NCBI GenBank assembly: GCA_021818075.1 | Contig: JAKAFD010000001.1 | Location: forward strand, 1 to 33,601 | Reading direction: 5' to 3' | From: a bacterium | Lineage (GTDB): Bacteria > Patescibacteriota > Patescibacteriia > Patescibacteriales > Patescibacteriaceae | DNA: 33,601 nucleotides | Shown here: positions 14,487 through 22,915 of the stretch, in pieces | How positions within the stretch are numbered: the stretch's first letter is position 1 | Layout: each line of letters begins with the position of its first letter | Notes under the pieces: model-generated | What the model was told of the DNA's origin: nothing | Databases searched by the model: none | Seen by the model: only the letters and a program-made list of their open reading frames with translations | Translations under genes and position numbers: made by a program

Positions 14487-14619
14487 TGTCCCTTAGCTCA
14501 GGTGGTCAGAGCACCAGGATGCGGAAGTCGTATGATAGTTTTTTAATACTAGTTAATGGAAAATTGTTGTTTTCCGCTTACGAACTTGGAGGTCGGGGGT
14601 CCGAATCCCTCAGGGGCAA
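14487..14619 (+). tRNA. tRNA-Arg-like gene (anticodon ACG or GCG) interrupted by a 59-nt insertion in the anticodon loop
   Basis: Hand-folded cloverleaf: acceptor TGTCCCT/AGGGGCA, D arm GCTC-AGGTGGTCA-GAGC, anticodon stem CCAGG/CTTGG separated by 66 nt, variable loop AGGTC, T arm GGGGG-TCCGAAT-CCCTC. Confidence 0.65.
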
Positions 14620-15117: not shown

Positions 15118-15540
15118 TTACAAATTTTGAATATGGGCGCTTAAAAAGGTTTCCACGGCGTTCACTGTGTCTTTTTTAAGTTTGGGATTGCTTTCCGCCA
15201 CCCATTTAGCAAAGTTGTACAGTTCCTGATTGTCAACTTTCAGCCATTTTTTATTTTCATACAAAAAATAAAATAAGGTAACCATCGCAATACGTTTGTT
15301 GCCGTTTTGAAAAGGATGATTTTTTATCATCAAATAAAAAAGAATCGCGGCTTTTTTGATAAGCCCCGGATAAAGCTGTTTACCGTCAAAAGTTTGGAAG
15401 GGCTGGTCAATACATCTTTCTAGGGCATCGCCAAAACGCGTTCTGAAATCAGGAATCGGCTCGGACCAGCTCATAGTTTCTTGCGCCAAGCGGTGAGCTA
15501 CATATTCAACGCCCAAAATGTTGATTCTTTGAATTCTCAT
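15118..15540 (-). CDS. doc: Doc/Fic-family toxin (start moved to MRIQRINIL)
   Basis: HPFQNGNKRIA matches the Doc-type Fic motif H-x-F-x-[DN]-[AG]-N-K-R; its ATG lies 1 nt after the stop of the HTH gene. Confidence 0.75.
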   Translation of the reverse strand: MRIQRINILGVEYVAHRLAQETMSWSEPIPDFRTRFGDALERCIDQPFQTFDGKQLYPGLIKKAAILFYLMIKNHPFQNGNKRIAMVTLFYFLYENKKWLKVDNQELYNFAKWVAESNPKLKKDTVNAVETFLSAHIQNL

Positions 15541-15541
15541 A

Positions 15542-15820
15542 TTATTCTTTGCCCAAGAGACGCAGGGTCTCGCCGTATTCCTTAACGGTTTTTTTGACAG
15601 CCTTAGCAATATCCGTTTTTTGGTCGGCCGTTAAGGGTTGCGTAGCAGAACCGCCGACGATAGCTTCGGCATCCTGCGTGGCGATAACATAAGACCGGCC
15701 GATTTTTTCAGCCGGAATCTGCCCTTTTTGGATGCGCTTAAAAACAGCCACTCGGCTGATACCAAGTTTTTTAGCCATTTCAGCGGCGGAGATGTATAAT
15801 TTTTTTTGTTTATTTTCCAT
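15542..15820 (-). CDS. Helix-turn-helix (excisionase/MerR-like) DNA-binding protein, probable antitoxin
   Basis: LYISAAEMAKKLGISRVAVFKRIQKGQIPAEKIGRSYVI; immediately upstream of the Doc gene. Confidence 0.7.
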   Translation of the reverse strand: MENKQKKLYISAAEMAKKLGISRVAVFKRIQKGQIPAEKIGRSYVIATQDAEAIVGGSATQPLTADQKTDIAKAVKKTVKEYGETLRLLGKE

Positions 15821-16243: not shown

Positions 16244-16752
16244 ATTTTTTTATCGCCCTTATTAAAAATCGCCATAAATAATAAATCATGAAATTTGCCC
16301 CCGGCTATGGTCTCGTCTTTCAATATGCCCTCTACTTTGAAACCTAATTTTTTATATAATTTTAGAGCTTGTTTGTTTTCTTTGTAGACGCCAAGATACA
16401 TTTTATGGAGCTTCAACTTTTTGAACCCATAATCTATGAGATATAACATTGCCAACTTCCCGAATCCACGACCCCGGTATTTATCCTCGCCAATGATGAT
16501 AAACAAGTCAGCATTGCGTCTTACCTGATCAATTTTTGTCAAACCCATGAAACCGACCGGCGTCTTATCATCACAGATAGTAAAAAATTTTTTGCTCTTA
16601 TCTTTTAAATAATTATCAAACCATTGGCGTTGTGCGCGGAGAGTGGTTTTCCGGCCAGACATATCGCCAATAAACCGATTAGCTTTGGGATTATTAAGCC
16701 AAGCTACACGGAAAGGAATATCTGTTTTGTTATGCTGCCTGATTTTTATCAT
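16240..16752 (-). CDS. GNAT-family N-acetyltransferase (RimJ/RimL-like); ATG at 16752, track start is a GTG at 16776
   Basis: RGRGFGKLAM acetyl-CoA motif A; ENKQALKLYKKLGFKVEG. Confidence 0.8.
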   Translation of the reverse strand: MIKIRQHNKTDIPFRVAWLNNPKANRFIGDMSGRKTTLRAQRQWFDNYLKDKSKKFFTICDDKTPVGFMGLTKIDQVRRNADLFIIIGEDKYRGRGFGKLAMLYLIDYGFKKLKLHKMYLGVYKENKQALKLYKKLGFKVEGILKDETIAGGKFHDLLFMAIFNKGDKKI

Positions 16753-16772
16753 AATTTTATTTTTGTAATTTA

Positions 16773-17324
16773 TCACACTTTAATATTTATACGAAACAGT
16801 TTAGTCGGCTTTGATGAAATTAAAGCAAACTTCAACCTAAGTTTGCCAACTTGTTTATTTGATATCGCTTTGCTTAAAACGGACATGTCAGTAGAATCGT
16901 TAACCGGTATCCATGTACTTACCTTTTGCTTCGCTCTAACTAATGTATCGATATCTGAAAGCTCACCAGTTATTCTTCCCTCAAACTTTACCTCATAGAT
17001 ATTGGTATTATGATCTTTAGCGCCATTTGGGTGCGGTAAAATAACTTTATCAAATTTAAAACCCAATGATTCAAGATACACCGCATTATTAGAAAGATTT
17101 TTAATTTCAATCACTATAATTTTTTTATATGTTGAGTCATTGGTGGTTATTGCCTTAACGTCTATGTAAACATTTTTTATTTTTTTTCTAGGCCACAAAT
17201 ACCATACAATCGATATTGAAGAAAAAACAAGCAAGACAATACTGATCATATCCCAAACTGCCCATATTGCCATGAATTGTAAAAGATTTCGCACAACAAG
17301 CATTATTGATTTTAAATCAGGCAT
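16773..17324 (-). CDS. Hypothetical membrane-anchored protein, 183 aa
   Basis: ORF track; N-terminal TM (ISIVLLVFSSISIVWYLW) followed by a beta-rich soluble region. Confidence 0.55.
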   Translation of the reverse strand: MPDLKSIMLVVRNLLQFMAIWAVWDMISIVLLVFSSISIVWYLWPRKKIKNVYIDVKAITTNDSTYKKIIVIEIKNLSNNAVYLESLGFKFDKVILPHPNGAKDHNTNIYEVKFEGRITGELSDIDTLVRAKQKVSTWIPVNDSTDMSVLSKAISNKQVGKLRLKFALISSKPTKLFRINIKV

Positions 17325-17356
17325 AAAGCGTCTTTTAAAAAATTTTTATTATTTTA

Positions 17357-17650
17357 TTATCCCCTCCACCACATTTTTATTGTATTAACGATAACTCGAA
17401 CAAATCCCACAATAATCAAGATAAAACCAAGTATAAGGCCTAATGCCACAATGAATCCACGCCCTTTTTGAAATATATTAAAAATCCCTACCGAAAATAA
17501 AACCCACCCCGTCGTAGTTATAGCTATCGCTATGATGAAGTTTTTTTTAAATTTTTTATCTATGTTTCTGCCACAGAATTTGCAGACCACTGCTTCTGCC
17601 TTAATTTGTTCGGCACAAAGTGGACATTTTTTTGTTTGTTCCTGAACCAT
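17357..17650 (-). CDS. Zinc-ribbon plus 2-TM membrane protein (98 aa from MVQEQ)
   Basis: CPLCAEQ...CKFCGR zinc ribbon followed by two hydrophobic helices. Confidence 0.6.
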   Translation of the reverse strand: MVQEQTKKCPLCAEQIKAEAVVCKFCGRNIDKKFKKNFIIAIAITTTGWVLFSVGIFNIFQKGRGFIVALGLILGFILIIVGFVRVIVNTIKMWWRG

Positions 17651-17654
17651 AAAA

Positions 17655-17825
17655 TTATTTTTTATAATTATATAGAATGTAGCCAATGAAAAGTAAAATG
17701 ATTATAAAAATCCAGTCTACAATTTGCCAGGTGGCAAATTTCCAATGAAAAGTAAGGCCTAGAAAAATAACTCCGGCCATAATCAGTAAAGTAGCGCCAT
17801 AACTCTTAAAATTTTCGTTTGGCAT
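17655..17825 (-). CDS. Small 2-TM membrane protein, 56 aa (below the ORF-track cutoff)
   Basis: My translation: MPNENFKSYGATLLIMAGVIFLGLTFHWKFATWQIVDWIFIIILLFIGYILYNYKK; 4-5 nt from both neighbours. Confidence 0.4.
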   Translation of the reverse strand: MPNENFKSYGATLLIMAGVIFLGLTFHWKFATWQIVDWIFIIILLFIGYILYNYKK

Positions 17826-17830
17826 AGTTT

Positions 17831-19048
17831 TTAGTTAACAATTTTTGTTAATCTTTTAGATACCCAACCAGAATTTTTTTTATTCAACTTAATTTTAATC
17901 CAATCCTTATTACTTAAATCTACTATCTCATATTTTATCCCCTTTTTTGCCGAACCGATAATTTTAGCTTTGGCGTTCGGATTGACCCGCACATTAGATG
18001 ACGTGGTGACGGTTAAAAATTTTGTCTTATTATCACTAACTTGAATTCCTAAAACTTGCGGCACTAAAACGCATGTAGCAGAAATTTCATCTAGTTTATA
18101 CCCCGAATTACATACGCAATCATTATTAACTAGGCTAGCATTGACGGGGCAGGTTATTTTTTCGCAATATAACCCACCAACAGAAATCCTAGAACCAACA
18201 TCGCATACGCAAGAATTACCAACAAGAGTTGCATTAAGCGGACAATCTATTTTTACACAAAAAGATTTAGTAGGGTCAGCTTTGTATCCCGTATTACAAG
18301 AGCAGGAGCCGGAAGAATTTTCCGATGAATTGACTGGACAAGTATTAATATTTTGGTTATAAGTTTGAAAAAAATAATCAATAGGATTTGAGTTATTTTT
18401 CTTGACACATGTGTCGCCGCTTAATTCATATCCATAATCACACTCGCATTTTTTTGTTGAGGAATTATAACTAGACCATAAACCCAGTAAATTTTGGCAG
18501 TAACTATTGCCATTAACGCATTTATCGTTATTTATAATATAACCATAATCACACTTGCAGGCATCTGATATTGAATCGTAACTAGAAAAAGACCCTAGCT
18601 GATCTCTGCAATATTCATCATCATCAATGCATTTGCCGCCCGACATTAAATAACCACTTCTGCACTCACATTTTCCACTTAAAGAATCGTAATCTGCTCC
18701 ATATCCATATCTTTTTTGGCATTCGGAATCTCCGGAAACACAAGACTCATTACCTAGAAAATCCGTTCCGACAACATAGCCACTCATGCACTTACATTGA
18801 CCAGATAGAGAATCATACAAAGACATAAATGGGCAGTCAGGAGTTGTAGGTATCGACGGTGTTGGAATATTTGGAATATATGATTTTGGGTTATGGCAAT
18901 GATATTCGCCATAAGAAAGTCCCCAACTTGGACAATTCGTTCTACAAGTATGACATCCCATACTATCAGTATTGCCAGGGTGTGCTGAAACAAAAAACGG
19001 AACACTTGCAAAAAATAGCGAGACCGCGACGACAAAGATTTTTTTCAT
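17831..19048 (-). CDS. Secreted Cys-rich modular protein: YHYH-like N-terminal motif, 7 Cys-repeat modules, C-terminal SH3b-like domain
   Basis: Signal peptide; GCHTCRTNCPSWGLSYGEYHCH; repeated C..YDS.SG.C.C..GY..; C-terminal VRVNPNAKAKIIGSAKKGIKYEIV...WIKI...GWV. Confidence 0.7.
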   Translation of the reverse strand: MKKIFVVAVSLFFASVPFFVSAHPGNTDSMGCHTCRTNCPSWGLSYGEYHCHNPKSYIPNIPTPSIPTTPDCPFMSLYDSLSGQCKCMSGYVVGTDFLGNESCVSGDSECQKRYGYGADYDSLSGKCECRSGYLMSGGKCIDDDEYCRDQLGSFSSYDSISDACKCDYGYIINNDKCVNGNSYCQNLLGLWSSYNSSTKKCECDYGYELSGDTCVKKNNSNPIDYFFQTYNQNINTCPVNSSENSSGSCSCNTGYKADPTKSFCVKIDCPLNATLVGNSCVCDVGSRISVGGLYCEKITCPVNASLVNNDCVCNSGYKLDEISATCVLVPQVLGIQVSDNKTKFLTVTTSSNVRVNPNAKAKIIGSAKKGIKYEIVDLSNKDWIKIKLNKKNSGWVSKRLTKIVN

Positions 19049-19063
19049 ATATTTAAGTTAATA

Positions 19064-19366
19064 TTAATAAGGGGCGTCAACCGTATCTACTGTTTGAAGT
19101 CTATATAAGGAATATTCCATATCCTCATAATTACTTCCCGCATAACTTTGAGCCTCTAAAATATTCTGATTAACTTCTTCAATGTTCCCATTCGCCTCTT
19201 CCAGCGCCGCTTCGTATTCATTTAATTTTTCGGTGCAAATATTATAATCACTCTCCCAGTCGTCAGCTTCATTAGACCATTCTTCCGCGGTTTTTCCATT
19301 ATACTCCCCTATAGAACAACCACTTAATAGGATTATAAACGGTAAAATGACTAATAATTTTTTCAT
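19064..19366 (-). CDS. Small acidic lipoprotein, 100 aa
   Basis: Lipobox LLSGC; E/D-rich helical remainder. Confidence 0.6.
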   Translation of the reverse strand: MKKLLVILPFIILLSGCSIGEYNGKTAEEWSNEADDWESDYNICTEKLNEYEAALEEANGNIEEVNQNILEAQSYAGSNYEDMEYSLYRLQTVDTVDAPY

Positions 19367-19369
19367 AAA

Positions 19370-19606
19370 TTAAAAACCGTACAAACTTTTACGGTTATTC
19401 CATTTGTATTGATCGGGGCCGGTTTTAAAATGACCCCCTATGTATTGACCGGTTGAGGGCTTAAAATATCCTCGCTGATATCTCAAAACCCCGCCAGTTT
19501 TATAATTTCTAACTCCATAGCTTCTGGCTTCGGCTTGTTTTGAGTTTAGAAAAAAGAACGAAAGGACGATTGCAAAAATCGTTGTTGTCAAAATAATTTT
19601 TTTCAT
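19370..19606 (-). CDS. Small secreted basic Gly/Tyr-rich protein, 78 aa
   Basis: Signal peptide ending AEA; Y/G/R/K-rich mature part. Confidence 0.55.
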   Translation of the reverse strand: MKKIILTTTIFAIVLSFFFLNSKQAEARSYGVRNYKTGGVLRYQRGYFKPSTGQYIGGHFKTGPDQYKWNNRKSLYGF

Positions 19607-19695
19607 ATTTTTAAATTTAAAATTTGCGCTAAAACATCAAGGCAATCGCCTTGGTATAAAGAAAAATTACCGTATTTGTAATATAAAGTTTTCAT
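19603..19695 (-). pseudogene. Possible 5' remnant of a DNA methyltransferase gene (30 codons)
   Basis: My translation: MKTLYYKYGNFSLYQGDCLDVLAQILNLKI; LYQGDCLDVL resembles the N-terminal (I/L)YxGDCLExL signature of N4/N6 DNA methylases; its stop overlaps the next ATG. Confidence 0.3.
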
Positions 19696-19699
19696 GTTA

Positions 19700-20296
19700 T
19701 TATTTTGGGTCTTTTAACCAATTATTTAATTCCGTATAAAAGTTCCAAGCTAATTGCATTCCTTGGTTAATTGTAGTCTCAGTAACTTCGGATGATCTTC
19801 CGTGTACCAACATGTTTCTTAACCAACGAATGGTTTTTATTTGATTTTCACCATTATCCGCTAATAAGCCCTTCTCTTTTAAAATTTTAACCAACTTTTC
19901 TTCATTGCCAGGTACTTGCTGTGAATTTGCTAAAATTACTGTAGCGGCAACTCGCAATAATCTTTCTATTTCGAAAGCAACTGATAGAAAATTACCAGTG
20001 GAATTATCCATCAATTGAATGATGTTTTTTTGTTGTTCAGCTTCTGCGACTTTTTCTTCGTTTGGTTTTGGGGCGTCGGCCGCAATACCCGGCTTACCTT
20101 TTAACTCTTCGAGATTTTTTATTTCTTTCTTTCCTCTTAATCCCCAGAAGTTAAATTCTTTTAAATCAGAAAACAATGCTATCAAGAGTACCATCAATGC
20201 AATTCCTAAAACATTGTTTGTTAAATCAGCGCCCCACCACTTGAATAATGCCGCCAATAAAATAAAAATAAGAACCAAAAAACCAAAGTTTTTCAT
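19700..20296 (-). CDS. Membrane-anchored protein (2 TM) with a C-terminal HEPN-like helical domain
   Basis: TM segments FGFLVLIFILLAALF and VLGIALMVLLIALF; K/E/A/P linker; RNMLVH (Rx4H) at 19802-19819 preceded by LLADNGENQIKTIRWL. Confidence 0.65.
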   Translation of the reverse strand: MKNFGFLVLIFILLAALFKWWGADLTNNVLGIALMVLLIALFSDLKEFNFWGLRGKKEIKNLEELKGKPGIAADAPKPNEEKVAEAEQQKNIIQLMDNSTGNFLSVAFEIERLLRVAATVILANSQQVPGNEEKLVKILKEKGLLADNGENQIKTIRWLRNMLVHGRSSEVTETTINQGMQLAWNFYTELNNWLKDPK

Positions 20297-20346
20297 ATAT
20301 TTATAGTATTATTAAAATCACCCCACGGTTTAAAACCTTAAAAACA

Positions 20347-21228
20347 TTACTCAGCACTAATTAAAAATTTAATTAATTTTTGGCTATATTCAAGAGCATC
20401 CTTTGCTTCGTTATCCGTTGCTGTTTTTCTGCCCTTATGAACAATACCATTCCTTATATTAATACTGCCTTTACACTTTTCAAAGATTTTTTCTTCAGGA
20501 AGTTCAGTGTCCCCCAAAAGTAGCTTCAAAGTAACTTTAATATTTCCCGTTAATCCGTAGTTTCTTATGTATTCATTTGCGTCGGAACTTGATACTTTTC
20601 TTAAATCACAAATTTTTCTAATAAAATCTGATGTAACCAACTCTAGGGCAGTAACACTTTCCAAAATTGAATGTCTATAGTCAGTTTGATACAAGTATTG
20701 CTGTGCATTTAGTATTAATTCGGTCCAAAAAGGAATATCTTTTTTATTTGCCAAATCCTCTTCTAATTGGTTACTGATTCTGTGGTTAAGCAATGGATCT
20801 ATTGGTTTAATACCTCCAGCAAGGCCTATAGACATACGGCCAGCGTTTCCTGTGAGCAAGTTAAAGCCAAACAAATCCTCCCTAATTAATGGTATAAGAT
20901 GGACTGAGTTTGGAGCATAGTATCTATATTTTTTTATTAATTTATTTATTAAGTCTAAAACAAAATTTTCCGACTCTGCAGTTTCTATTTCTTGGTCAAA
21001 AACTTTGTTGGTGTATATATCAACCTCGGAATATGCATCTATGCCCCAGCGGTCTCTTATTGTTTCTGTGTTTTTAGAAAAGCTGATTCTTCTGTTTGGG
21101 ACTGTCTCTTTTTTAGAAAATCTAATTTTTGTATCAAAACAATCTTTTAGTTCAAAAAAGCGCCCATCAATATTATATAGGCAATAGGGTAAAGCAGTCT
21201 TAATTGTTGTTTTATATGTTTTAACCAT
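20347..21228 (-). CDS. Two-domain protein: unknown N-terminal domain plus a C-terminal HEPN-like domain
   Basis: RNGIVH (Rx4H) at 20437-20454 within helical ...HSILESVTALELVTSDFIRK...SINIRNGIVHKG...AKDALEYSQKLIKFL. Confidence 0.65.
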   Translation of the reverse strand: MVKTYKTTIKTALPYCLYNIDGRFFELKDCFDTKIRFSKKETVPNRRISFSKNTETIRDRWGIDAYSEVDIYTNKVFDQEIETAESENFVLDLINKLIKKYRYYAPNSVHLIPLIREDLFGFNLLTGNAGRMSIGLAGGIKPIDPLLNHRISNQLEEDLANKKDIPFWTELILNAQQYLYQTDYRHSILESVTALELVTSDFIRKICDLRKVSSSDANEYIRNYGLTGNIKVTLKLLLGDTELPEEKIFEKCKGSINIRNGIVHKGRKTATDNEAKDALEYSQKLIKFLISAE

Positions 21229-21451
21229 TGGCTAAATTTTTTTGATCGGGGATCGGTGGCATTTTTGAAATGTTTTGTGCAGTTTCACCGAATTGTTTCT
21301 CAGTTTCAGCATCTATTTCTTCTTTGGTTGCCACCCCCTTTTCAATTAAAACATTTTCTAAAGCCTTCATTCTCGTGTCTCTTGATAGGTCAAAGGCAGC
21401 ATTTGGACCTATTTTAGGCGCGACGATACTAAGATATTCTTCAAATTTCAT
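21221..21451 (-). CDS. Small acidic helical protein, 76 aa, overlaps the HEPN gene start by 8 nt
   Basis: ORF track; overlap suggests translational coupling; no recognisable motif. Confidence 0.55.
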   Translation of the reverse strand: MKFEEYLSIVAPKIGPNAAFDLSRDTRMKALENVLIEKGVATKEEIDAETEKQFGETAQNISKMPPIPDQKNLANG

Positions 21452-21484
21452 ATTAGTTTATATTAGTTAATAAAATTGTTTACC

Positions 21485-22915
21485 TTATCGTTTAAATGAA
21501 ACTAAAATACTTTTCATGTCTTCTCTTTTAACCCCGCCGAGTCCGTATAAAGCGAGGGCGTAGATTAAGCCGCCGAGGGGGACGAGGAGGAAAAAGGACA
21601 GCTTGGCTTTGAGGAATAAAATCACGCCGGCCATGATGAGGGCAGATGAAAGGGCTTTGCCCAGGGTGGGCAGGACTTTTCGCCAGCGCCAGGCCGTAAT
21701 CTGGCGGCTGATGATTAAACTTAAGACAAACAATAAAACATTGGTGATTAAAACGGTCAGGGCGGCGCCGGTCGGGCCCCAGAGCGGGATTAACAAAAGA
21801 TTTAACAAGACGCTGGCCACGACCACGATAGCCATATTGCGGGTGTTGGTTCGCTGGCGGTCGCAGGCGTTCAAAAGCGAGCCCAAGGGGAAATGGATAA
21901 AGATAAAAAACAGCGAAATCATTATCAATTGCAAAGGCAAAATTGAATCATGAAAACCTTTGTTAAACAGCAAGACCACTTTGTCGGACAGGGCGATGAC
22001 GCCGGCCATAATCGGCAAGGAAATAATGGTGGAGTAATTAAGGGCGCGCTCAAAGGTAATTTTTAATTGCTCGCGATTGTCGCGCCAATACATGCTCAAG
22101 GCCGGATAAAGCGAGGCCACAAAGGCCATGGGCAGGAATTGCAGGGCGTTGACGATTTTAAAGGGCACCTGATAAATGCCGACCGCCCAGTCCCCCGCCA
22201 GCTTAAAGAGCAAGACCGAATCAAAATAAGTATAGAGGCGCTGTAAAATGGCGTAGAGCCCGAACGGCCAGGCCACCGCGAAAATTGTTTTTACGGCGAA
22301 CCAATTCCAAGTCGGCCGGAGTGATAATTTAAATTTGGCTTTGGCTAGGATAATGGTGTAGGCGAAATTGACAATGCTGGCCAAGGGCAAGCCGACCATC
22401 AGCCAGATAACGCTTTTGTCCAGGCTCATCATGGCCAGGGCGGAGATTAAGACGACGATTTGCACGCCGACCGAGCCGATGCTTTCATACTTCAGGTTGT
22501 GATGTCCGCGAAAATAAGAATAAAAAGAGGTGCTGAAAGAATCCAGCACCATGGAAATACTCGCCAAGTAAATTAAATTTTTCACCAAGTCGGAATTGCC
22601 CTGCGCCAAGATGATGGCCAAAATCCAAGTTAGGGCGGCCAGGGGCAGTTTGATGCCGAGAATTGATTGAAAAAATTTCTTGGGCTCCTCGTCGCGGCGC
22701 GCCACGGTGCGGGTCAGGACATTGGCCAGGCCTAGGTCAATGAACACCGAGCAAATGGTGGTAATGGAAATGGCAAAATAGAACTTACCCAAGTCCTCGG
22801 GCCCGAGGTAGCGGGCGTAGAGGGTGAAATAGGTAAAAGAGATGAGCTTTTGGATAATCAAAGCCAGGGTGAAATACGAAGTGTTTTTGGCGATATTGGC
22901 GATTTTGTTTGGCAT
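21485..22915 (-). CDS. Wzx-like polysaccharide/oligosaccharide flippase (MOP superfamily); start moved to MPNKIAN
   Basis: About 476 aa with about 12-14 TM helices; the first 61 codons of the track ORF run through a GC-rich repeat and a divergent promoter. Confidence 0.7.
   Translation of the reverse strand: MPNKIANIAKNTSYFTLALIIQKLISFTYFTLYARYLGPEDLGKFYFAISITTICSVFIDLGLANVLTRTVARRDEEPKKFFQSILGIKLPLAALTWILAIILAQGNSDLVKNLIYLASISMVLDSFSTSFYSYFRGHHNLKYESIGSVGVQIVVLISALAMMSLDKSVIWLMVGLPLASIVNFAYTIILAKAKFKLSLRPTWNWFAVKTIFAVAWPFGLYAILQRLYTYFDSVLLFKLAGDWAVGIYQVPFKIVNALQFLPMAFVASLYPALSMYWRDNREQLKITFERALNYSTIISLPIMAGVIALSDKVVLLFNKGFHDSILPLQLIMISLFFIFIHFPLGSLLNACDRQRTNTRNMAIVVVASVLLNLLLIPLWGPTGAALTVLITNVLLFVLSLIISRQITAWRWRKVLPTLGKALSSALIMAGVILFLKAKLSFFLLVPLGGLIYALALYGLGGVKREDMKSILVSFKR

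Follow-up and report, generated by a model that had tools for sequence, protein, structure and literature searches.

HEPN ribonucleases (RNases) are recurrent effectors of toxin-antitoxin (TA), abortive-infection (Abi) and CRISPR-accessory systems. Here we describe three consecutive minus-strand genes from a bacterium of the Patescibacteriota, located within a stretch of 33,601 nucleotides (nt) of contig JAKAFD010000001.1 (GenBank assembly GCA_021818075.1) that is referred to below as the window. The genes encode proteins of 76, 293 and 198 amino acids (aa), and the two larger products carry predicted HEPN domains. Our analysis leads us to favor, with somewhat better than even confidence, a reading in which the genes for the 76-aa and 293-aa proteins form a mobile two-gene conflict cassette, resembling TA and Abi modules, that lies beside an independent gene for a HepT-like protein with two transmembrane (TM) helices. 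This reading is based upon the linkage of the two genes across genomes, the geometry of their junction, the invariance of the Rx4H motif, the HEPN fold predicted for the larger protein, and the conflict-related and mobile neighborhoods in which the pair is found. An initial annotation of the same DNA had instead placed all three genes in a single candidate system.

The gene for the 76-aa protein occupies positions 21221-21451, that for the 293-aa protein positions 20347-21228, and that for the 198-aa protein positions 19700-20296, as taken from the open reading frame (ORF) listing for the minus strand. The first two genes meet at the sequence GCCAATGGTTAAAACA, in which 8 nt are common to the ATG and the TAA. 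Within the overlap itself (ATGGTTAA, positions 21221-21228, minus strand) the 76-aa gene ends and the 293-aa gene begins, which suggests that translation of the two is coupled. A gap of 50 nt separates the stop of the 293-aa gene from the start of the 198-aa gene, which adjoins the pair yet is independent of it. The three ORFs, the overlap and the gap agree exactly with the initial annotation, which had also correctly placed them within an AT-rich island: the GC content is 0.31-0.37 across approximately 16.5-21.5 kb of the window, as compared with 0.41-0.50 on either side.

Evidence for the pair comes from 28 loci encoding homologs of the 293-aa protein, two of them collected from GTDB representatives, 20 from JGI metagenomes and six from assemblies. 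Searches with tblastn revealed a homolog of the 76-aa protein directly upstream of the 293-aa homolog in 25 of these 28 loci, and in a 26th (L018) the tail of such a homolog is visible at the contig edge. The junction is conserved as well; stop and start overlap by 8-50 nt, or are separated by a single nucleotide, in 15 of 16 distinct loci. In the remaining locus, on a metagenome contig (L021:280-1290), the homologs of both genes are frameshifted, which reflects either decay of the cassette or a fault in the assembly. By the same searches, a homolog of the 198-aa protein was present in none of the 28 loci, and contigs with all three genes are limited to copies of the window sequence (GCA_027348945.1 and the metagenome contigs that match it). 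Thus, the small ORF of the initial annotation is a real and conserved partner of the 293-aa gene and the two co-occur elsewhere, whereas the 198-aa gene, assigned to the same unit, is a neighbor whose adjacency is specific to this genome. A three-gene system was rejected on the basis of these co-occurrence data. For genome scans, the lesson is that two HEPN genes lying side by side in one genome do not by themselves point to a system; testing for co-occurrence divided this candidate into a genuine pair and a bystander.

The genes that flank the pair are lineage-specific. They include N6_N4 methylases (one of them fused to an Mrr_cat restriction endonuclease), RelB-YafQ, Fic, an IS200 transposase, and a serine recombinase/resolvase with GIY-YIG. 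The close clade is also sporadic: two loci were recovered among 185,579 species-representative genomes, in a scan that used two peptide patterns only, and this count fits a sporadic accessory gene. Homologs of the three proteins are found mostly in bacteria of the candidate phyla radiation (CPR), including Roizmanbacteria, Falkowbacteria, Parcubacteria and Gottesmanbacteria, a distribution that rests on few named matches. In several respects the layout is that of a type II TA module, in that the genes are adjacent, co-oriented and overlapping or abutting, one of them is small, and they remain linked across genomes while their mobile contexts vary.

The C-terminal half of the 293-aa protein is assigned to the HEPN superfamily by three independent lines of evidence, namely motif conservation, predicted fold and transitive homology. 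In an AlphaFold2 (AF2) model with a mean predicted local distance difference test (pLDDT) score of 81.6, and scores of 87-96 over residues 160-290, the protein is divided into an N-terminal domain and an all-helical C-terminal domain of residues 144-293 (positions 20347-20799, minus strand, including the stop codon). The latter carries the Rx4H motif RNGIVH (residues 259-264; positions 20437-20454, minus strand), located 29 aa from the C-terminus. The HEPN signature comprises Rx4-6H, a polar residue (N/D/H) after the arginine, and an upstream acidic residue, typically within Ex3[KR], and the residue set of the 293-aa protein fits this description (Anantharaman et al. 2013; PMC3710099). R259, N260 and H264 are each retained in 52 of 52 close homologs, and R185, E190 and E196 are likewise invariant in the close family; E190/E196 supply the upstream acidic residue, although they are not spaced exactly as in Ex3[KR]. 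Across 148 divergent representatives of the superfamily, with non-gap residues counted, R259 is conserved in 140/140, H264 in 140/143, E196 in 140/144 and N260 in 132/141, and no other position of the protein is conserved as strongly as R259 and H264. On its own, an Rx4H carries little weight, as it arises upon shuffling with P = 0.20 for the 293-aa protein and P = 0.03 for the 198-aa protein; when R[NDH]x3H is required among the C-terminal 50 residues, the corresponding values are P = 0.005 and P = 0.001. The weight of the assignments comes from homolog conservation, Pfam match and fold match. As to the last of these, the best PDB neighbors of the C-terminal domain identified by Foldseek are HEPN proteins (1ufb, 2q00, 1o3u, 2hsb, 1wol, the Csm6 structures 6tug and 8jbb, the HepT toxin 5yep, and 4nqf), matched with a probability of 0.9-1.0 and a TM(target) of 0.5-0.65.

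The 293-aa protein itself gives no match to Pfam, NCBIfam or PADLOC at E<=1, and its profile gives none at E<=10 to all PDB sequences. Among 86 divergent relatives, 11 match HEPN_RiboL-PSP (best E 5e-6) and five match HEPN; further matches are to Ymh, AbiV, Swt1 and Apea in Pfam and to Csx1/Csm6 and AbiV in PADLOC, and all of the HEPN-clan matches that were inspected fall below the gathering score. The Apea model is matched by a single relative of the 86 (E 0.005). An Apea-like architecture, which the initial annotation had considered for the 293-aa protein, was not borne out (no match to PF18739), and membership of the Apea-like, DUF4145, Swt1 and AbiD/F families was rejected given the lack of a Pfam or PADLOC match and only scattered sub-threshold matches in distant relatives. 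A relationship to RnlA/LsoA was rejected as well, these being absent from both the PDB sequence matches and the top 50 Foldseek neighbors.

The N-terminal domain (residues 1-143; positions 20800-21228, minus strand) is beta-rich in the AF2 model, contains one long helix (residues 83-104) and has an isoelectric point (pI) of 9.0. In keeping with the initial annotation, which recognized no motif in this region, searches of Pfam, PADLOC, NCBIfam and PDB returned no match, and Foldseek identified no fold relative. Conserved polar residues of this domain across the superfamily are P14, D59, N95 and D118, and two invariant loops, RDRWGIDA and AGG, are modeled with low pLDDT in the monomer. The superfamily comprises at least 1,763 clusters at 50% identity in bacteria and archaea, 576 of them at E<=1e-10. 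It constitutes a sizeable HEPN lineage that escapes the curated libraries Pfam, NCBIfam and PADLOC and that, judging by its active-site residues, is catalytically intact. Some distant relatives (P0170, P0183, P0174 and P0197) carry extra zinc ribbons, an N-terminal SEC-C motif or N-terminal extensions of ~325 aa, which points to modular evolution at the sensor end.

The partner gene has 24 homologs, with identities of 58-84%. Its 76-aa product, which had been described as acidic, is only mildly so (pI 4.9, with 13 D+E vs 10 K+R). The AF2 model (pLDDT 91) consists of helices at residues 3-14, 16-37 and 43-62, followed by a variable, disordered tail rich in K, N and S; no structural neighbors were found for it with Foldseek, in which the best E-value was 2.6. 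One clade of the superfamily has recruited a tightly conserved small partner without known fold relatives. Residues 25-58 include a helix motif of ~25 residues, R-x-KALE-x-LLIEKG-x-x-T-x-EEID, that also occurs at the N-terminus of both the alpha and the beta subunit of nitrile hydratase and, weakly, in phrog_21408 (PHROGs; function unknown). In nitrile hydratase the matching segment belongs to a subunit-interface arm. This resemblance is a shared motif and not a family assignment. A nitrile hydratase relationship was rejected because the match covers a single 25-residue helix with E ~0.2 per distinct chain, the one match of 2.6e-5 being to an artificial tandem construct (4ob1), and an NHLP-type peptide was rejected because no NHLP model in NCBIfam was matched.

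The 198-aa gene encodes a protein of another design. Hydrophobic stretches at about residues 4-22 and 28-46 account for the two TM helices of the initial annotation; this hairpin is followed by an invariant juxtamembrane element, DLKEFNFWGL, a low-complexity linker of K, E, A and P, and a HepT/DUF86-like HEPN domain at about residues 106-198. The lysine-rich segment after the second TM helix suggests, by the positive-inside rule, that the HEPN domain is cytoplasmic. Its motif, RNMLVH (residues 160-165; positions 19802-19819, minus strand), lies 33 aa from the C-terminus, so that a distance of about 30 aa, as initially annotated, holds for both HEPN proteins. Pfam PF01934 (HepT-like/DUF86) matches residues 110-166 with 27.6 bits, above its gathering cut-off of 23.5, while the NCBIfam HepT_toxin equivalog yields 23.7 bits and falls short of its cut-off of 60; weaker matches include DUF4145, RiboL-PSP-HEPN and CARF-HEPN models (Pfam, PADLOC). 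The initial assignment of both larger proteins to HEPN thus stands, although a Pfam search confirms it for the 198-aa protein alone, the 293-aa protein being recognized through Foldseek and its invariant RNxxxH.

The 198-aa family comprises 78 homolog clusters and is distributed CPR-wide. E111, R112 and R115 (Ex3R) are nearly invariant, as is R160 (76 of 79 members), but H165 is retained in only 52 of 79, such that catalysis is not a universally conserved property of this family; its most conserved element is the juxtamembrane DLKEFNFWGL rather than the catalytic histidine. Conservation of the motif arginine and histidine, on which the initial proposal depended, was found for the 293-aa family and not for the histidine of the 198-aa family, where the result counts against that proposal. 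An alignment of the two HEPN domains by hhalign places the motifs in register with a probability of 11%, which indicates distant lineages and not a diverged pair. Six genomic contexts of 198-aa homologs (L029-L031, L039-L041) contain neither the pair nor an MNT gene, and no MNT nucleotidyltransferase adjoins the 198-aa gene in the window, as the initial annotation had noted. Instead, the neighbors of these homologs encode GroES/EL, a SAM methyltransferase, dCMP deaminase and MutL/S, or form a type III restriction-modification (R-M)-like operon. The last arrangement was seen in Candidatus Gottesmanbacteria (MFJR01000015.1; L031:1851-7334), where the gene for P0093, a 223-aa homolog, is located between those for a 716-aa N6_N4 methylase and an 892-aa ResIII/RE_endonuc protein; the gene boundaries overlap, placing a membrane-anchored HEPN gene within the operon.

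Comparison with characterized systems helps to define both halves of the locus. MNT-HepT (HEPN/MNT, type VII TA, PF01934) resembles the 198-aa protein in the Pfam family, the RNxxxH motif and the invariant Ex3R (E111-R115). In that system, MNT AMPylates the tyrosine of Rx4HxY. The 198-aa protein differs in that it has no MNT partner, adds an N-terminal anchor of two TM helices, has lost the histidine in 27 of 79 family members, and reads RNMLVHGR, with no tyrosine at H+2. With no MNT neighbor, no tyrosine after the histidine and a score below the equivalog cut-off, it is not a canonical HepT toxin. Membrane-associated HEPN proteins have been described in three groups, namely DUF4145 with one TM helix bearing a WP signature, Abi2/Swt1 with one TM helix, and HEPN-2TM-Zn ribbon, and were proposed to degrade RNA at the membrane upon a stimulus (PMC3710099). 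The 198-aa protein is like them in that a cytoplasmic HEPN domain would be tethered to the inner membrane, and unlike all three in having an N-terminal TM hairpin followed by a HEPN domain of the DUF86/HepT type.

For the pair, one close parallel in organization is RnlA-RnlB/LsoA-LsoB, the anti-phage type II TA modules of RNase LS, in which a HEPN domain is joined to additional N-terminal alpha/beta domains, needed for RnlA/LsoA function (PMC8266594), and a small dedicated protein partner is encoded in the same two-gene operon. The residues essential in RnlA (R255, E258, R318 and H323; PMC8266594) recur in pattern as R185, E190/E196, R259 and H264 of the 293-aa protein, with R and E in helix 1 followed by Rx4H. 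RnlA and LsoA differ from it in possessing two TBP-like N-terminal domains rather than one. RnlB is larger and encoded downstream, whereas the partner described here is 76 aa, encoded upstream in an overlapping gene, and partnerless relatives are common. Members of the 293-aa superfamily that occur alone instead resemble single-protein HEPN Abi effectors (ApeA, AbiV, AbiD/F, AbiJ and RiboL-PSP-HEPN), which likewise combine a variable N-terminal domain with a C-terminal HEPN domain and an intact Rx4H; however, the 293-aa protein matches none of their models, its N-terminal domain is unrelated to those described, and its clade adds a dedicated small partner gene. Informative examples of HEPN regulation so far are AMPylation by MNT, blocking of the active site by RnlB, and activation of ApeA by a ligand.

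HEPN RNases homodimerize, which creates a composite Rx4H site. In the mechanism that we propose for the cassette, the 293-aa protein would homodimerize through its HEPN domain, as do RnlA and other HEPN RNases, and the dimer would build a composite site from R185, E190-E196, R259 and H264 capable of metal-independent RNA cleavage. The N-terminal domain may gate or target this activity. Within this clade the 76-aa protein would bind the 293-aa protein stoichiometrically and most likely keep it inactive, in the manner of an antitoxin, for as long as no trigger (infection or loss of the element, for example) relieves the inhibition; RNA cleavage would then arrest growth, in a defense or addiction role.

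Several observations weigh against the cassette reading. An intact 293-aa homolog (L008, 57% identity) occurs without the 76-aa gene, as do a subclade of 42-47% identity (L016, L036/37) and archaeal relatives of ~25% identity, which stand alone beside housekeeping genes, namely those for PyrB/PyrI, NAC, PUA, Alba and TBP. These solo relatives indicate that the enzyme is not obligatorily neutralized by the 76-aa protein and, with respect to type II TA modules, that the putative toxin does occur without its antitoxin. In addition, 14 of 14 matched loci show stronger conservation of the small protein than of the enzyme (70.9% vs 55.8% identity), which is unusual for an antitoxin, and the small protein has no match of helix-turn-helix, ribbon-helix-helix or AbrB type in Pfam or Foldseek, that is, no recognizable antitoxin fold of a DNA-binding or neutralizing kind. 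Neither family was detected in IMG/VR viral contigs, and PADLOC gives no match for either protein. The Foldseek E-values that accompany the HEPN matches are modest (0.05-0.5) and cover the C-terminal domain alone. Finally, a shared transcript for the three genes is possible in this genome, as no terminator-like site was identified by a consensus scan in the 50-nt gap between the 293-aa and 198-aa genes. Separately, a viral origin was rejected, based upon the IMG/VR result, the lack of a BFVD match for the 293-aa model, and a weak PHROGs match limited to the 76-aa protein. In two members of the 42-47% subclade, the upstream position is taken not by the 76-aa gene but by a gene for a small protein, predicted to be membrane-bound, of 116 aa (L016:464-814) or 43 aa (L036:2123-2254), which may be an alternative partner.

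Some of these same observations would be expected if the 293-aa protein were a housekeeping or stress enzyme for RNA processing or turnover and the 76-aa protein its structural or specificity subunit, with no toxin or defense module involved. An obligate subunit would be expected to be more conserved than its enzyme, the large superfamily retains its catalytic residues, an intact copy stands alone in L008 as do distant relatives beside the archaeal genes listed above, and Las1 and Ire1 are known examples of HEPN RNases with housekeeping roles (PMC3710099). We nevertheless regard this explanation as unlikely, if still worth serious consideration, given that the close clade is so sporadic, its flanks are non-syntenic and consist mostly of R-M, TA, Fic, transposase and resolvase genes, the pair resides here in an AT-rich island, and the frameshifted copies of both genes in L021 fit a dispensable gene. 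The solo relatives also bear on another possibility, that the 76-aa protein serves a self-inhibited HEPN enzyme as a positive regulator, an adaptor or a sensor of the trigger, since they imply an enzyme that is auto-inhibited, presumably through its N-terminal domain. There is precedent for such logic in the defense protein ApeA, which is activated allosterically through a pocket that is separate from its catalytic center (preprint 10.64898/2026.01.26.701840). The strong constraint on the 76-aa protein would suit this role, and the low-confidence invariant loops RDRWGIDA and AGG could be a partner- or ligand-binding site; set against this is the absence of any similarity to ApeA. Moreover, type II TA operons classically place the antitoxin first, and the small upstream overlapping gene has exactly this order, leading us to consider positive regulation a rather improbable account. 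Very unlikely, in our view, is the proposal that the HEPN-like domains are non-catalytic nucleotide- or protein-binding modules in which Rx4H has no functional meaning: many HEPN domains are indeed non-catalytic substrate-binding modules, and the histidine is dispensable in a third of the 198-aa family, but HEPN domains that retain the motif have been argued to be RNases (PMC3710099), and the ranking of R259 and H264 above all other positions of the 293-aa protein across divergent representatives is an active-site signature.

The least credible alternative is that of the initial annotation, in which the two HEPN proteins would form a heterodimeric RNase tethered to the membrane, with the 76-aa protein as neutralizer or sensor. 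The local arrangement does lend itself to this idea, with three adjacent genes on one strand, RNxxxH motifs in both proteins that align in register, and a terminator-like hairpin (CAAGGCGATTGCCTTG and then a T-rich tail; positions 19638-19653, minus strand) 47 nt past the stop codon of the 198-aa gene and none before it in the gap; the scan for such sites returned four in total as compared with 2.4 expected. The arrangement recurs on contigs from several samples, but all of these share the same or near-identical sequence. The co-occurrence data largely refute the heterodimer, as the 198-aa gene has a homolog in none of the 28 loci and its own homologs occur in six contexts without the pair, and any co-transcription with it is a local circumstance, not a conserved design. 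The remote relationship between the two HEPN domains and the loss of the motif histidine in the 198-aa family point the same way, and characterized HEPN RNases such as RnlA are homodimeric (PMC8266594).

A more ambitious version of the cassette reading, which we regard as plausible though short of probable, would make the 76-aa and 293-aa proteins the founding example of an undescribed CPR HEPN conflict system, comprising an unusually conserved three-helix trigger sensor or regulator and a two-domain RNase with a new N-terminal fold. The solo members of the superfamily would then be a large class of uncharacterized, self-regulated RNases. Separately, the 2TM-HepT family would represent a fourth, hitherto undescribed class of membrane-tethered HEPN proteins, whose conserved function resides in DLKEFNFWGL rather than in catalysis. 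New HEPN families and partners turn up regularly, and both the cassette and the 2TM-HEPN protein are variants of a well-known kind. CPR bacteria are thinly covered in defense catalogs and, if validated, the module would add to a sparse picture of their conflict systems.

No tandem repeats, Rfam elements or notable flanking inverted repeats were found with the cassette, and an RNA antitoxin or repeat element of the AbiF/ToxIN type was rejected on these grounds. The AT-rich island (positions 16500-21500) holds many small minus-strand genes for secreted or membrane proteins. Among them are genes for a 405-aa protein with Cys-rich EGF-like repeats and SH3_3 (17831-19048), a 100-aa lipoprotein (19064-19366), a 109-aa protein with a zinc ribbon and two TM helices (17357-17686), and a 183-aa TM protein (16773-17324), all on the minus strand, together with minus-strand ORFs of 78 aa and 56 aa. 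Several of the island genes and the 198-aa gene have the start context TTAAATATATGAAAAA in common. Outside the island, at about 15118-15820 (minus strand; viewed through the matching contig L032, 14477-15179), a gene for a small HTH_17 protein is followed by one for a 132-aa Fic-domain protein, and the two are possibly a Fic toxin-type pair. A tRNA-Arg(ACG) gene at 14487-14619 (plus strand) is interrupted in its anticodon loop by an insertion of 59 nt, which lies at position 32/33, a non-canonical site. The gene is recognized by Rfam with 41.3 bits and by ARAGORN in its intron mode, and is missed by ARAGORN under default settings; a short insertion of this type, not belonging to group I, is unusual in a bacterial tRNA.

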